Source: Acaryochloris marina S15 (GTDB taxonomy: Bacteria > Cyanobacteriota > Cyanobacteriia > Thermosynechococcales > Thermosynechococcaceae). From it: a stretch of DNA of 32,000 bases. The translations under genes and the position numbers were made by a program. This document shows positions 4,445 through 9,634 of this stretch, piece by piece; position 1 is the first letter of the stretch, and the number at the start of each line of letters is the position of its first letter. The notes beneath the pieces are model-generated. The model was not told where the DNA came from. It ran no database searches and saw only the letters and a list, made by a program, of their open reading frames with translations. The stretch covers positions 3,000,001 through 3,032,000 of the forward strand of contig NZ_CP064923.1 in assembly GCF_018336915.1 (NCBI RefSeq), given 5' to 3'.

Positions 4445-4951
4445 ATGCTTGCCGCAACCAGCTATCCTGCACCTTGGGGAGTTTCGTTAAAAGCCATCTC
4501 TGGAGGAATAACACTGCTGCTGATCGGCATAGCTGTTATTGGTCTACTCACGGGACCCAAAAGCAACTGGATTTGGATCCTCAGTATGGTAGTTATCCCT
4601 CTCGGCATCTTGTTAATTACGGCTTTGTTTACAGTTCGAGGCTATGTCCTTACGCCTGATGCTCTGCTTGTGAAGCGCTTAGTCTGGAATACGGAAATAC
4701 CATTACAAGGGCTACAGACGATTGAAGCCGATTCTAATGCCATGGAAGGCTCTTTCAAAACAATGGGGAACGGAGGTTTGTTCAGTTTCTCAGGTTCCTT
4801 TCGCAATAAACGCTTAGGGGCCTATCGAGCTTTGGCCACCGATATGCGGCGATGCGTTGTCCTCAAGTTCGATCAAAAGGTGATTGTTATTACGCCTGAC
4901 AAACCTCAAGCATTCGTCAATCAGGTCAAGGCAATAAAGGGCATGACTTAA
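4445..4951 (+). CDS. Membrane protein with a bacterial PH (bPH_2/YdbT-like) domain
   Basis: Two N-terminal TM helices are followed by 'RGYVLTPDALLVKRLVWNTEIPLQGLQTIE', which resembles the bPH_2 core. Confidence 0.6.
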   Translation: MLAATSYPAPWGVSLKAISGGITLLLIGIAVIGLLTGPKSNWIWILSMVVIPLGILLITALFTVRGYVLTPDALLVKRLVWNTEIPLQGLQTIEADSNAMEGSFKTMGNGGLFSFSGSFRNKRLGAYRALATDMRRCVVLKFDQKVIVITPDKPQAFVNQVKAIKGMT

Positions 4952-4967
4952 AGATGGTTTTAAAATT

Positions 4968-6185
4968 CTAATCCGCCAAGACTTGCAACACAGCTTTAGG
5001 TGCAAGCTTATCTTTGAACCACACCAATCGAGCTGGGGTATTGCTGAAATTGACGCCTGCTTTATCTAGGTTGAGTCGTTCAGAAATCGCTAAAATCAAG
5101 TCTGATCGATCAGCCTGTTGCACCTGAGAGAATTTCTTTTTTAAATACTCGGGCCGCCAATACCCCACTATCTCTAGTAGAAATGTCCGACCATCCGGGT
5201 GAACTAGGCGGAAGTCTGGAATCATGACGCTTCCCGGAATCGGAATCAGATCAATTTCTCGCTCTAGCTTCCACTCCGTTTTAGTCTTCTGCCATCGTTC
5301 GGCAAAGCTGGCTTCCAGCATACTGTCATAGGGCTTACCCGGTGGATAGTGACTGACCAAACCACATTCAGAATCAAGGGCAAATCGACTGGTTCGTTGT
5401 TGTTTGGAATAGGTGTCTTTGCTGGTTAAGGTTGCAGACAGGCTCCACTTCGTCACATGCAGTAATGCTGGCAGCAACTTTGCTAAAGCTAAGCCATAGC
5501 GGGTGCTAGCACTAAATACACTGGCAGGCCCATCAATTTTGAGGGTAAATCCTTGATCAGCATCGCCCTCGATATAGGCCATTAGACAAAACAGCTTCAG
5601 ATAGCGAAATAGAAGCTTATACTCTCCGGGGTCATTCCGATGGGCATTGATGATAATTTGAGTTGCTTTGTAAAAAACGCCTTGAACCTGAGATAAGTTA
5701 TAGCGGTGTAGCAACGCTTCAGGGGTAGGGGCATCAAAGGCAGTCAAGATTTGATTGTCTGGTCGATCGGCATAAAGCCCTTCTTGGATTTGAATCGCAC
5801 TAACGTCTCGCTCTAGCTCTTGGCTCAAGTTAACGGCTAGTCGTTCTAGAGTCTGGGTTGTCGCTTGAGGACTTGGCACTGACTGGGCAGACAGAGAAAA
5901 GACTCGCTGCCGCAACATGGGTGGATCGAGGGGACTAATGACTTCAAAGGTGGAAAAGCCACTGGATAAAAGATGGGCCAGTCCCCGCTTCACCCGATAG
6001 TCTGTTCCATCTCCTTCAAGATCTAGTAACTGCTGACTGAGTTCGCCTCGGGTTTGATTGCAGGCCGCGTTAAAACAATCGATGGCTTCTGTTGCGATCG
6101 CAACATTCCCCGCATTCACCGCCAGCCGTTTTGGAATAATCGCTTCACCCTGATAGTGATGCATCAGTAAGTCAGAAGGCAACAT
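4968..6185 (-). CDS. DUF790 family endonuclease (Bax1-like)
   Basis: The N-terminus 'MLPSDLL....IIPKRL' and the C-terminal 'IPDFRLVHPDGRTFLLEIVGYWRPEYLKKKF' match the DUF790/Bax1 pattern I recall (PDF...EivGfWtpeYl). The ~400 aa length fits. The ATG is 3 nt after the upstream LRR stop (TAGGACATG), with GAGG 8 nt upstream. Confidence 0.75.
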   Translation of the reverse strand: MLPSDLLMHHYQGEAIIPKRLAVNAGNVAIATEAIDCFNAACNQTRGELSQQLLDLEGDGTDYRVKRGLAHLLSSGFSTFEVISPLDPPMLRQRVFSLSAQSVPSPQATTQTLERLAVNLSQELERDVSAIQIQEGLYADRPDNQILTAFDAPTPEALLHRYNLSQVQGVFYKATQIIINAHRNDPGEYKLLFRYLKLFCLMAYIEGDADQGFTLKIDGPASVFSASTRYGLALAKLLPALLHVTKWSLSATLTSKDTYSKQQRTSRFALDSECGLVSHYPPGKPYDSMLEASFAERWQKTKTEWKLEREIDLIPIPGSVMIPDFRLVHPDGRTFLLEIVGYWRPEYLKKKFSQVQQADRSDLILAISERLNLDKAGVNFSNTPARLVWFKDKLAPKAVLQVLAD

Positions 6186-6188
6186 GTC

Positions 6189-7412
6189 CTAACCCTCAAC
6201 ACTTTTTCGCAAATAGTCTTTAACTGCCCTAGCCCCTCGCTCCCACTGCACATCTAGCTCAGATCTAAGGGGATTATTGGATAGATCAAGGGTTTTGAGA
6301 TGGTCTAGCTTCCCTAAAGAAGGGGGGAGATCCGTCAAATTGTTGTGGCTCACATTCAGACTCTTTAACTGAGTCAGTTCCCCTATCCAATGGGGTAATG
6401 CCCTTAACTCACAAGCTACAAACGTCAGTTGTTCCAATAAGCGGCAACCCCGTAGTTCCGATGGAAACGCTTGCAAAGGAACGGGTTGGTCTGGGTCTAG
6501 ATTGAAAATTAGCTGCTTAAGATTGTGGAGTTTACCGATAGATTCTGGCAGCTGACGAATGCTATTGCCAGCAATGCCCAAACTAGCCAAGGCCACTAAG
6601 TGACCAAAGGATTCGGGAAGATGGGTGAGCTGATTGTTATAGGCCAACAATGAGGTCAAATTCACTAAACTGCAAATTTGCGGTGGCAAAGATTGAAGTT
6701 GATTAGATTGAATATCCAAACTTGTAAGTTGATGAATTGAGCCCAAGGCTGTGGGTAATTCAGTCAACTGGTTAAAAGACAGGTCCAAGGAACGCAATTC
6801 CGCCAATGTCCCCAACCATGCCGGGAGAGTCTCCAGATGATTAAAAGCAAGGTTCAGAGATGCCAATCCCTGAAGAGATTTCCAGATAGTCGGGATTTCA
6901 TGGAGTCCGGTACTGGCAACTTCAAGAGATCGTAACCCCGTCAACAATCCCAACTCCTCTGGCCACTGGGCAATGGGATTGTAGGAAAGCTGCAATTCTT
7001 TGAGGGTTTCCAGCTTCCCGATGGAAGAGGGCAAATGAACCAGTTGATTGGATGTTAGATTTAGCGATCGCAACTGTGATAATGCACCTATAAATTCCGG
7101 GAGTTCCACAAGGGCATTTCCCGTGAGATCCAGCGATCTCAACTGGGTTAAATCCCCCAGAACCTCCGTTAGGATAGGCAGATGGTTACGGGCTAAGTCC
7201 AACCCTTGGAGCTGAGTTAATCGCCCCAAGGATTTGGGCAGTCGCATCAGTTCATTTTCAGATAGGTAAAGAGATTTCAACTGAGAGAGGGAACCAATCG
7301 ACTCTGGTAACTCACTCAACCCAATATCACTTAAATCTAGCTCCGTTGCTCCTTCAAGACGAGCAATATCTATCAGCCTCTCGGCTTCTCGATAGGCCGA
7401 ATTTTTTTCCAT
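6189..7412 (-). CDS. Stand-alone leucine-rich repeat protein (~16 repeats of 23 aa, Roco-type LRR module)
   Basis: About 16 consecutive 23-residue units of the form LxxLxLxxNxLxxLPxxIGxLxx, for example 'LKSLYLSENELMRLPKSLGRLTQ' and 'LRSLDLSFNQLTELPTALGSIHQ'. The N-terminal cap is 'AYREAERLIDIARLEGATELDLS' and the C-terminal end is 'NPLRSEL...AVKDYL'. There is no P-loop or Roc-COR. Confidence 0.9.
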   Translation of the reverse strand: MEKNSAYREAERLIDIARLEGATELDLSDIGLSELPESIGSLSQLKSLYLSENELMRLPKSLGRLTQLQGLDLARNHLPILTEVLGDLTQLRSLDLTGNALVELPEFIGALSQLRSLNLTSNQLVHLPSSIGKLETLKELQLSYNPIAQWPEELGLLTGLRSLEVASTGLHEIPTIWKSLQGLASLNLAFNHLETLPAWLGTLAELRSLDLSFNQLTELPTALGSIHQLTSLDIQSNQLQSLPPQICSLVNLTSLLAYNNQLTHLPESFGHLVALASLGIAGNSIRQLPESIGKLHNLKQLIFNLDPDQPVPLQAFPSELRGCRLLEQLTFVACELRALPHWIGELTQLKSLNVSHNNLTDLPPSLGKLDHLKTLDLSNNPLRSELDVQWERGARAVKDYLRKSVEG

Positions 7413-7474
7413 TACTTCTGATATCTAAGCCCTTTAACCGGAAAAAACACTGCCTCTCAAGAATCATCAATAGG

Positions 7475-8017
7475 CTATTGCTCTATTAATGCTTTGAGAT
7501 TCCCTAACCCCGCTTCATAATCTTGCCCCACAGCACTATCCAGAACAAACCGAAGGTAGGAACTAACAGGCTTCATTAAAGGAGGCACCCCCGCACTCAT
7601 ATCTGTATCTAGGGACCAGGCAACCAGCGTACCATTGTCCTGAGGCGTCAATTGTAACGCTGCATCCGCAGTTCCCTGTGGTCCAAAATCTAGATGGGTC
7701 TGGATATAGCTGGGCTCAGTCATAGCTGTAACTTCTTGAGTACCCGTCCCCACCATCGGATCCTCACTTTGCCAGTGCATCGTCTGCCCTACACCATTTC
7801 CCTCAATCGTTAAAGCCATATCGGGATCCATTTTTGCCCAGGGGGACCAAGCAGACCACTCTGATAAATCACTGACAATGGGGAAAATGGCAGCTGGAGA
7901 CGCATTGATTAAGATATTTCGTTCAACATGCACTTCGCTAGGAAGGATCAAGCCTCCTATCACCACCAGTAAAAACAGCCCTATCAGTCCACCAATCACA
8001 TTTCTGAAGATAGCCAT
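7475..8017 (-). CDS. Membrane-anchored SRPBCC (polyketide cyclase/dehydrase-like) family protein
   Basis: An N-terminal TM helix 'IGGLIGLFLLVVIGGLIL' is followed by 'VERNILINASPAAIFPIVSDLSEWSAWSPW', typical of the SRPBCC/START-like fold. Confidence 0.7.
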   Translation of the reverse strand: MAIFRNVIGGLIGLFLLVVIGGLILPSEVHVERNILINASPAAIFPIVSDLSEWSAWSPWAKMDPDMALTIEGNGVGQTMHWQSEDPMVGTGTQEVTAMTEPSYIQTHLDFGPQGTADAALQLTPQDNGTLVAWSLDTDMSAGVPPLMKPVSSYLRFVLDSAVGQDYEAGLGNLKALIEQ

Positions 8018-8405
8018 AACCGAGGGATCTCCTAGATTGTCTATTCGCTTTCAGTGTAAAAAGAGAATACAGAATTCGAATCAAGATTGAACATTGTTTT
8101 AAGCCCTCAAGATTACTAATCGTTACAATTCATACGCAGGAATAATATAGAAGGGCATGATTTAGTTTAGAACCTCACTTTGGGTATGAAAGTGAGCTAT
8201 AACCTGCTAGGGATAGATGATTGCTTGACTACATAAGGAGTGATAAACAACACCTTCTCTTGTGACGCACATCATATTTTTCATCTAGCGTAAATTATAT
8301 TCTTAATTTCAGTGAGCCACAGCCCAGGAACAATCTGGTCGAGGCCACGACACAAAGCCTAAGCAAACACTAATTCTTTACCCCCCTGCATTGAAGGAGA
8401 CTCCT

Positions 8406-8842: not shown

Positions 8843-9634
8843 ATGGCCTACCCACTTTCAGCAACCAAGCTTCAGACCTATCGTCAATGTCCTCAAGCCT
8901 ACTATTTCAAGCATGAGCGACGGTTAACGGTCCCCTCTGCCTTCGGTTCACCCACCTTCGGTAAGGCAATCCATCGAGCTTTGGCCCAGATCTACCAGGA
9001 CTGGTCCTATGCCGACCCTCTTCCGCCCTTGCAATGGTTTGCTGATTGTTGGCAACAGCATATTAGTGAGCTAAAGGAGTCTCAAATTCATGAAGGCTGG
9101 CAAGCCCTAGAGACCTACTATCACCAATATGTGGCCCCTCAACCCATGCTGCGAAAACCAGTGGGCATTGAGGGCAAGATTCAAGCCTCTTTTCAAGTTA
9201 GTAATATTGAGTTTGCCTTGTCCGGTCGCTATGACCGATTAGATTGGCTAGACGATGGCCTAGAACTGATCGACTACAAAACCAGTAAAACCGTAAAGCC
9301 CCCAGAAGCCATTGATGTGCAGTTGGGGCTTTATTATTTGGCATTGGAGCAAACGTATCACCATGCTCTTAAACGACTGAGTTTGATTTATTTACGCAGT
9401 AATCAATGCATTTCTTATGAGGTGACTCCCGATCATTTAGAGCAAATCAAAGATTTGATTGGGGACTTAGCTTTGAAACTCAGGTCTGATCAAGACTGGC
9501 ATCCTCAGGAAGGATCACAGTGCGATCGCTGCGGGTATCGACAATATTGCAGTGCCCAAACGCCTAACCCTGAACCTCTCCCACAAACCGCAAAACCTCC
9601 GCAAAAGGTCCAATTAGCTCTGCCATTCCTTTGA
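8843..9634 (+). CDS. PD-(D/E)XK nuclease, Cas4/RecB-exonuclease-like with a 4-Cys cluster
   Basis: All hallmark motifs are visible: N-terminal Cys in 'YRQCPQAYYF', 'GKAIHRAL', 'GRYDRLD', 'ELIDYKTSK' (the D/ExK motif), 'QLGLYYLAL' (QxxxY) and C-terminal 'CDRCGYRQYC'. Confidence 0.85.
   Translation: MAYPLSATKLQTYRQCPQAYYFKHERRLTVPSAFGSPTFGKAIHRALAQIYQDWSYADPLPPLQWFADCWQQHISELKESQIHEGWQALETYYHQYVAPQPMLRKPVGIEGKIQASFQVSNIEFALSGRYDRLDWLDDGLELIDYKTSKTVKPPEAIDVQLGLYYLALEQTYHHALKRLSLIYLRSNQCISYEVTPDHLEQIKDLIGDLALKLRSDQDWHPQEGSQCDRCGYRQYCSAQTPNPEPLPQTAKPPQKVQLALPFL

Follow-up and report, generated by a model that had tools for sequence, protein, structure and literature searches.

The locus described here raises the question of why a nuclease gene of the Bax1 type should stand directly behind a gene for a leucine-rich repeat (LRR) protein, with no helicase gene in the neighbourhood. 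It lies in a 32-kb window of the Acaryochloris marina chromosome; the window is the whole stretch of DNA that was analysed, and coordinates refer to it unless another locus is named. The nuclease gene occupies positions 4968..6185 on the minus strand and encodes a protein of 405 amino acids (aa) of the DUF790 family (QUY40473.1 / WP_212661697.1; PF05626). It is preceded on the same strand by a stand-alone LRR gene (6189..7412; 407 aa) and, further upstream, by an SRPBCC gene. The exact DUF790 and SRPBCC proteins are recorded under A. marina (QUY40473.1 and QUY40475.1). An earlier note on this DNA had proposed that the LRR gene occupies the position of the helicase XPB and forms a functional two-gene module with the nuclease.

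The comparative evidence presented below makes a different explanation probable, namely operon capture: a vertically inherited orthologue of Bax1 would have come into an unrelated operon when the DNA beside it was rearranged, and the helicase that partners it is probably encoded at another site. Repeated rearrangement of the sequence 5′ of DUF790 would have separated the gene from XPB in Acaryochloris. One such event, in the A. marina clade, would have set DUF790 3 nucleotides (nt) behind a stand-alone LRR gene to which it is unrelated and which is accompanied by a gene for a membrane-anchored SRPBCC protein. The upstream region that DUF790 originally had would thereby have been lost. Transcription of DUF790 now most likely starts at the SRPBCC/LRR promoter, and its translation most likely depends on ribosomes that re-initiate once they have terminated at the LRR stop codon. 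The pairing is most likely a by-product of genome rearrangement and not a dedicated LRR-nuclease system.

The DUF790 nuclease and its usual neighbour

The 405-aa protein is a member of the DUF790/Bax1 family, as the earlier note had held. PF05626 covers it end to end, with an E value of 7.3e-155, a score of 515.9 bits against a cut-off of 28.8, and a match to positions 1–387 of the 387 in the profile. The archaeal Bax1 structures 6P66_B, 6P4F_B and 6P4O_B align to residues 1–376 with E values of 1e-21 to 1e-27. In the Archaeoglobus fulgidus enzyme (AfBax1), the acidic residues of the nuclease active site are E275, D305 and E318, and D133 belongs to both an N-terminal site and the XPB interface (PMC7293015). 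The equivalent acidic residues, which the note had singled out for checking, are intact in A. marina: E291, D324 and E338 align to the three nuclease-motif residues, with the first glutamate (E291) offset by one position from the published AfBax1 number, and D140 in an N-terminal YADR motif corresponds to D133. All four residues are invariant across 26 cyanobacterial sequences.

The same family includes the Bax1 subunits of the archaeal XPB-Bax1 complexes from A. fulgidus and Sulfurisphaera tokodaii (6P66, 6P4F, 6P4O and 6P4W; PMC7293015, PMC7672443). The homology extends over the N-terminal, Cas2-like and nuclease domains, and the E, D and E of the nuclease motif are conserved together with the YAD motif. 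The A. marina protein differs from its archaeal counterparts in being bacterial and shorter (405 aa versus 468 to ~500 aa in 6P66_B and 6P4O_B) and in lacking the archaeal C-terminal domain. The A. marina system also differs from archaeal XPB-Bax1 in that no XPB gene adjoins DUF790. The NCBIfam Bax1 equivalogs NF053694 and NF053695 score 162.8 and 139.7 bits, far below the cut-off of 500, indicating a family member but no equivalog of the archaeal enzymes. DUF790 identity is 70–75% across cyanobacterial orders. The A. marina gene is most likely the vertically inherited orthologue of the cyanobacterial Bax1-type structure-specific nuclease, and its product probably still acts in DNA repair.

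The neighbourhood of DUF790 was surveyed in one genome per GTDB species, giving 80 cyanobacterial loci (L012–L091) among at least 596 confirmed matches. Open reading frames (ORFs) were called in all survey loci and then clustered, and XPB positions were recounted by tblastn. The commonest neighbour of DUF790 is a protein of ~510 aa encoded just upstream on the same strand, which is identified by its Pfam domains (XPB_DRD, ResIII, Helicase_C and ERCC3_RAD25_C) as the XPB helicase. Its gene lies directly upstream of DUF790, with a gap of less than 350 nt, at 27 of the 80 loci; it lies upstream with 0.4–4.4 kb inserted at 20 loci, and elsewhere in the locus at one. A further 27 loci contain no XPB with at least 2.5 kb of upstream sequence available, and five have too little upstream sequence to be informative. 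XPB is adjacent or near in 48 of the 80 species. The earlier note had proposed counting LRR against XPB neighbours across cyanobacteria, and the count goes against its module: XPB is found upstream on the same strand at 47 of 75 informative loci, and an LRR homologue is found near DUF790 in none of the 80 other cyanobacterial species, the search extending to 8 kb.

Loci without XPB carry mutually unrelated upstream genes, including rpoC2 and genes for an ABC transporter, a histidine kinase/cyclase, a GT4 glycosyltransferase, a DUF5357 protein, an MFS protein and a PPC-domain protein. The assorted neighbours at these 27 loci indicate that DUF790 without a linked XPB is common in the phylum. The gene orders suggest that the XPB-Bax1 arrangement is the majority state in the phylum and probably ancestral, with about one-third of species lacking a linked XPB. 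According to a survey from 2012 (PMC3353954), 'few, if any' cyanobacteria have XPB, and a bacterial XPB-Bax1 complex was still to be identified at that time. In contrast to that survey, XPB-Bax1 gene pairs prove to be common and highly conserved in cyanobacteria. XPB identity between genera is ~74–83% among the matches listed.

The pairs in L031, L041, Calothrix brevissima NIES-22 (L059) and Phormidesmis (L012) illustrate the usual arrangement. Their DUF790 proteins are orthologous to that of A. marina (69–75% identity), with the same length and the same invariant residues. An XPB of ~490–560 aa is encoded upstream on the same strand, whereas A. marina has the LRR gene in that position.

The spacer of the XPB-DUF790 operon is, on the gene orders observed, a site that takes insertions repeatedly. 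In Microcoleus (L029, L032, L039, L045, L047, L048, L050, L051, L060, L061 and L072), XPB and DUF790 are separated by a small gene that encodes a DUF3598_N protein of 153 aa and is located 15 nt upstream of DUF790. In Phormidesmis (L012–L014), the small inserted gene encodes a Uma2-family endonuclease and abuts or overlaps the DUF790 start.

Within Acaryochloris, the trio of SRPBCC, 407-aa LRR and DUF790 genes is present in five strains of the A. marina clade: the strain of the window, L011 (a Logan assembly), L092, L093 (Acaryochloris sp. 'Moss Beach', CP071717.1) and L094 (A. marina NIES-2412). Beyond these closely related strains, the LRR-DUF790 adjacency is absent from four other Acaryochloris lineages and from 80 of 80 other species. 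The lineage with a 94% identical DUF790 has glutamate synthase as its 5′ neighbour, the 90% identical lineage a TPMT methyltransferase, and the 88% identical lineage two unannotated genes, all in divergent orientation; the 85% identical lineage has an unannotated 187-aa gene on the same strand. An Acaryochloridaceae metagenome-assembled genome carries rpoC2 upstream of DUF790 and no LRR pairing.

In the Acaryochloris relatives L001, L004, L005 and L009, the DNA 5′ of DUF790 is unalignable right up to the ATG. On the 3′ side, synteny (bPH_5, NmrA-like, DUF2062 and TsaE) is largely kept in Acaryochloris relatives, and bPH_5 adjoins DUF790 in L001, L004, L005–L008, L011 and L092–L094. The unalignable 5′ side and the retained 3′ synteny together point to the 5′ side of DUF790 as a recurrent rearrangement breakpoint in the genus, with the LRR gene as one of several outcomes. 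Acaryochloris would thus provide an example of a conserved repair gene that is separated from its partner and becomes part of an operon unrelated to it.

This distribution lends no support to the claim that the LRR gene stands in the XPB position as part of a functional module, since the LRR gene adjoins DUF790 only within the A. marina clade. The earlier note had conceded that its proposal would fail if the adjacency were not conserved in related genomes, and this is partly the case: the adjacency is kept in very close relatives, but more distant ones have XPB beside DUF790, and the presence of the LRR gene is local. The note had also called the pair long resident, pointing to HIP1 copies and host-like GC content. 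Both features are present: HIP1 (GCGATCGC) occurs at 6094 and 7064, and the GC content is 0.464 for the LRR gene, 0.479 for DUF790 and 0.457 for the window. Long residence holds for DUF790, which is vertically inherited and phylum-wide, but not for the pairing, which is young, with a synonymous divergence (dS) of DUF790 of ~0.55 across the strains that share it.

One of the five strains shows a lesion in DUF790. At L093:9833-11051, a G-run in the gene is lengthened by 1 nt (GGGG to GGGGG), the frame is shifted and no gene is called. DUF790 is intact in the near-identical L092 assembly, and the LRR gene of L093 is also intact. Either the assembly contains a sequencing error here or DUF790 is a real pseudogene in this strain.

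The LRR protein and the gene junction

The LRR protein matches LRR profiles only (Pfam LRR_8, 1.8e-42; LRR_14, 6.4e-43; also LRR_4). It is composed of an N-terminal cap and 16 repeats, in keeping with the earlier estimate of about 16 units in 407 aa. The repeats extend from residue 22 to the C-terminal cap; fifteen are of 23 aa and one irregular unit is of 28 aa. The tandem LxxLxLxxNxL pattern that defines LRR proteins is present.

Aligned over its full length with the LRR arm of a Roco protein (LRR-Roc-COR; P0127), the protein shows 39% identity, and the two have the N-terminal cap and the C-terminal 'NPL...YL' linker in common. The C-terminus of the LRR protein, 'NPLRSELDVQWERGARAVKDYL', aligns with the 'NPL...AAYL' linker of the LRR-Roc-COR protein, and the chain stops 6 residues past the point where the latter runs into the Roc P-loop. 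The earlier description of a Roco-like LRR that ends at the Roc boundary was therefore accurate. Unlike Roco proteins, the LRR ORF ends at the linker and contains no Roc GTPase or COR domain detectable with Pfam; it is a Roco-type LRR without Roc-COR and not itself a Roco protein. Since no signal peptide is visible on inspection, the protein is probably a cytoplasmic scaffold.

The best database relatives of the LRR protein are multi-domain Roco, TIR-LRR and SHOC2/LRRC40-like proteins of 30–46% identity. The homologue search behind these figures missed even the 84% identical protein of L011 and is unsuited to finding orthologues. In a metagenome scan the best match is 39% identical, and the scan yielded no orthologue from outside A. 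marina. The matches from the scan are LRR-only, paralogue-like genes in housekeeping contexts. At L095:5632-10288, a tandem pair of LRR-only genes (804 and 709 aa) sits among iPGM and CcmE, on a contig that has an exact 8-residue word in common with the LRR protein of the window. These tandem genes indicate that LRR-only proteins also exist in places where neither DUF790 nor SRPBCC is a neighbour. The exact 407-aa LRR proteins of the window and of L011 (L011:2467-3690) are absent from a collection of 15 billion proteins in which their DUF790 and SRPBCC neighbours are present, and the 407-aa genes called in L011, L092 and L094 are without a Pfam record. The absence from the collection may reflect a gap in it or another start codon in the deposited annotation.

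An end so close to the LRR-Roc linker, beside a DUF790 flank that is a rearrangement breakpoint, is what would be expected if the LRR ORF were the decaying 5′ remnant of a Roco gene cut by the DUF790 rearrangement. Such an origin is scarcely credible. The ratio of nonsynonymous to synonymous divergence (dN/dS) of the LRR gene is 0.13–0.15 at a dS of 0.7, the gene contains no indels or stop codons, and the length of 407 aa is kept in five of five strains. The nearest Roco proteins are merely 39–46% identical to the LRR protein, so any truncation would be old and its product retained as a functional protein, and related genomes carry LRR-only proteins. A truncated-Roco pseudogene is rejected on the grounds of purifying selection together with invariant length. 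The LRR gene is clearly functional and under ordinary purifying selection.

Read directly on the minus strand, the junction between the two genes is GAGGGTTAG-GAC-ATG, that is, a stop codon, 3 nt and a start codon. The LRR stop codon TAG lies at 6189–6191, the spacer GAC at 6186..6188 and the ATG of DUF790 at 6183–6185, and the coding-strand context is ...GTTGAGGGTTAG GAC ATG.... A Shine-Dalgarno-like GAGG is located at positions −12 to −9 before the DUF790 start. The same arrangement of stop codon, 3 nt and ATG is found in all five A. marina-clade strains, with TAG or TAA as the stop codon and GAC or GTC as the spacer. Between LRR and DUF790, a consensus scan reveals no promoter-like or terminator-like excess above shuffled expectation, and there is no terminator-like hairpin. 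Because of the 3-nt gap, the GAGG and the lack of a terminator hairpin and of a promoter excess, co-transcription of LRR and DUF790 with re-initiation across the junction is plausible. The tight junction with GAGG reported by the earlier note is real, and such a layout would allow the two genes to be co-transcribed and translationally coupled.

The LRR and DUF790 ORFs share one frame, with the in-frame translation ...SVEG*DMLPSD..., and are separated by one stop and one sense codon. Read-through of the stop would yield an LRR-DUF790 fusion of ~814 aa, and this frame layout is kept in the five strains. The stop codon itself varies among them, which counts against programmed read-through.

The SRPBCC gene (7475..8017, minus strand; Polyketide_cyc2, PF10604, 8.9e-17) lies 62 nt upstream of the LRR gene and on the same strand, and its product carries a hydrophobic N-terminal anchor, again as described earlier. 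The transcription unit probably begins with this gene. The divergent intergenic region at 8018..8390, between SRPBCC on the minus strand and a 120-aa ORF on the plus strand, is the sole sizeable non-coding gap upstream on the minus strand and is the likely promoter region for the three genes.

Selection, recombination and the search for a helicase

Between the window and NIES-2412, DUF790 shows a dS of 0.55 and a dN/dS of 0.03. The corresponding values are 0.69 and 0.14 for the LRR gene, and 0.44 and 0.11 for the SRPBCC gene. All three domains of DUF790 are constrained, including the XPB-binding N-terminal domain with a dN/dS of 0.05–0.12.

Substitutions in the LRR protein were compared between the exposed x positions of the β-strand face and the other repeat positions. 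No concave-face excess is seen: between the window and L011, changes affect 12 of 80 concave-face positions and 44 of 293 others (15% each; Fisher p = 1), and the other two strain pairs give Fisher p values of 0.83–0.86. By this measure, the LRR protein is without an immune-sensor signature.

The comparison with L011 also reveals a mosaic. The block at 6186–8200, comprising the LRR and SRPBCC genes and the upstream spacer, is 78–88% identical between the window and L011, whereas the flanking DNA is ~99–100% identical. The LRR dS between the two is 0.74, and one boundary of the mosaic is the LRR/DUF790 junction. In addition, the LRR gene of L011 is nearer to that of NIES-2412, while its DUF790 is nearer to that of the window. 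The mosaic and the discordant affinities of L011 show that the SRPBCC-LRR cassette was swapped by homologous recombination without DUF790. A cassette exchanged independently of DUF790 does not suggest co-adapted partners.

These data bear on the view that the LRR protein and the Bax1-type nuclease are a true two-component defence or DNA-surveillance module, in which the LRR protein, serving as sensor or scaffold, would recruit or gate the nuclease in place of XPB. If true, an LRR-gated Bax1 nuclease would be a new kind of two-gene surveillance system. The 3-nt spacing on the same strand and in the same frame, kept in five strains, would be in line with such a module, as would the purifying selection on both genes, the lack of a helicase in the window and an LRR domain of the Roco signalling type. 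Against it stand the survey, in which XPB and not an LRR gene is the usual upstream neighbour, and the lack of the pair in sister Acaryochloris lineages. The synteny within A. marina spans a whole 9-gene block, so conservation is not specific to the LRR-DUF790 pair. The LRR allele has been swapped by recombination beside an almost unchanged DUF790, and concave-face diversification is absent. Models of PADLOC-DB v2 match none of the LRR, DUF790, SRPBCC and bPH_5 proteins, and the sole other mark of a defence island in the window is an isolated Cas4-like gene. Taken with these observations, a dedicated module is very unlikely.

The likeness of the pair to STAND/NLR-like defence proteins is conceptual only and consists of a repeat-type binding module beside a nuclease. 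The A. marina pair differs in having no NTPase switch and in being two separate proteins, and it shows no PADLOC matches, sensor-face diversification or conserved co-occurrence. It is also highly improbable that the LRR protein was recruited in the A. marina clade alone as a working Bax1 partner that targets or gates the nuclease in place of XPB, with the conserved in-frame junction representing selected translational coupling or even low-level read-through to an LRR-nuclease fusion. On the comparative evidence, the gene order looks like an accident at the level of the species, which as such would matter little.

Among all ORFs of 100 aa or more in the 32-kb window, none has a helicase domain, consistent with the earlier note, and no XPB is found in ~100 kb of other Acaryochloris loci. 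An XPB is probably encoded elsewhere in the A. marina genome and would be the partner of DUF790. A precedent is provided by Leptolyngbya boryana, where DUF790 has no helicase within 10 kb and an XPB 79% identical to that of Phormidesmis lies at 2.75 Mb of the chromosome with no DUF790 nearby. XPB and DUF790 can thus coexist at unlinked sites, and an unlinked DUF790 does not mean that XPB is absent.

Two more solitary XPB genes are present in cyanobacterial contigs (P0330 and P0317). The Logan XPB P0330 was considered as an Acaryochloris gene and set aside: its contig has 52% GC and OprB genes only ~60% similar, and it is not demonstrably Acaryochloris.

Wider searches for an A. marina XPB carry no weight either way. 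No Acaryochloris sequence is among the best 120 XPB matches listed for a Phormidesmis query; existing Nostocales XPBs are likewise not among them, and the matches reach down to ~74% identity, so that an Acaryochloris XPB of 70–77% identity could escape. No A. marina XPB is found on PLSDB plasmids, where the matches are only from Deinococcus, haloarchaea and Nostoc. What does weigh against operon capture is that five strains, spanning a DUF790 dS of ~0.55, have all kept the junction with the two ORFs intact, as one would likewise predict for a coupling that serves a purpose.

The helicase searches could also be read as a sign that A. marina has lost XPB altogether, with DUF790 working alone or with another helicase and the LRR gene as an incidental neighbour. 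All of the negative results above, from the window to the plasmids, fit such a loss. It would also fit that some archaeal Bax1 proteins cleave DNA unaided (PMC7293015). However, the XPB-binding N-terminal domain of DUF790 is still strongly constrained and its YAD motif is invariant, L. boryana keeps both genes at unlinked sites, and an XPB of 70–77% identity would fall outside the best 120 matches listed. On balance, the loss of XPB is unlikely. Were XPB absent from A. marina, the nuclease would have to do without the helicase it normally pairs with, a result of moderate interest whatever the LRR gene does.

Other genes of the window

Downstream of DUF790 lies a gene for a bPH_5 (bacterial PH domain) membrane protein (4445..4951, plus strand; PF10882). 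The two genes are convergent, with 16 nt between their stop codons.

The Cas4-like gene (8843..9634, plus strand) encodes a stand-alone PD-(D/E)XK nuclease of 263 aa that matches PDDEXK_1 (1.2e-33) and several PADLOC Cas4 models. It is the only defence-like match there, and no cas genes are annotated near it in the window. The gene is kept in L011, L092 and L093; in NIES-2412 it is not beside SRPBCC.

Neither tRNA or tmRNA genes nor Rfam families at the gathering threshold are detected across the whole 32 kb. The other genes of the window encode TsaE, DUF2062, NmrA-like and SH3 proteins, BipA, a hybrid histidine kinase and a GGDEF response regulator, together with a solute-binding protein, MscS, TamB, CorA and LapA.

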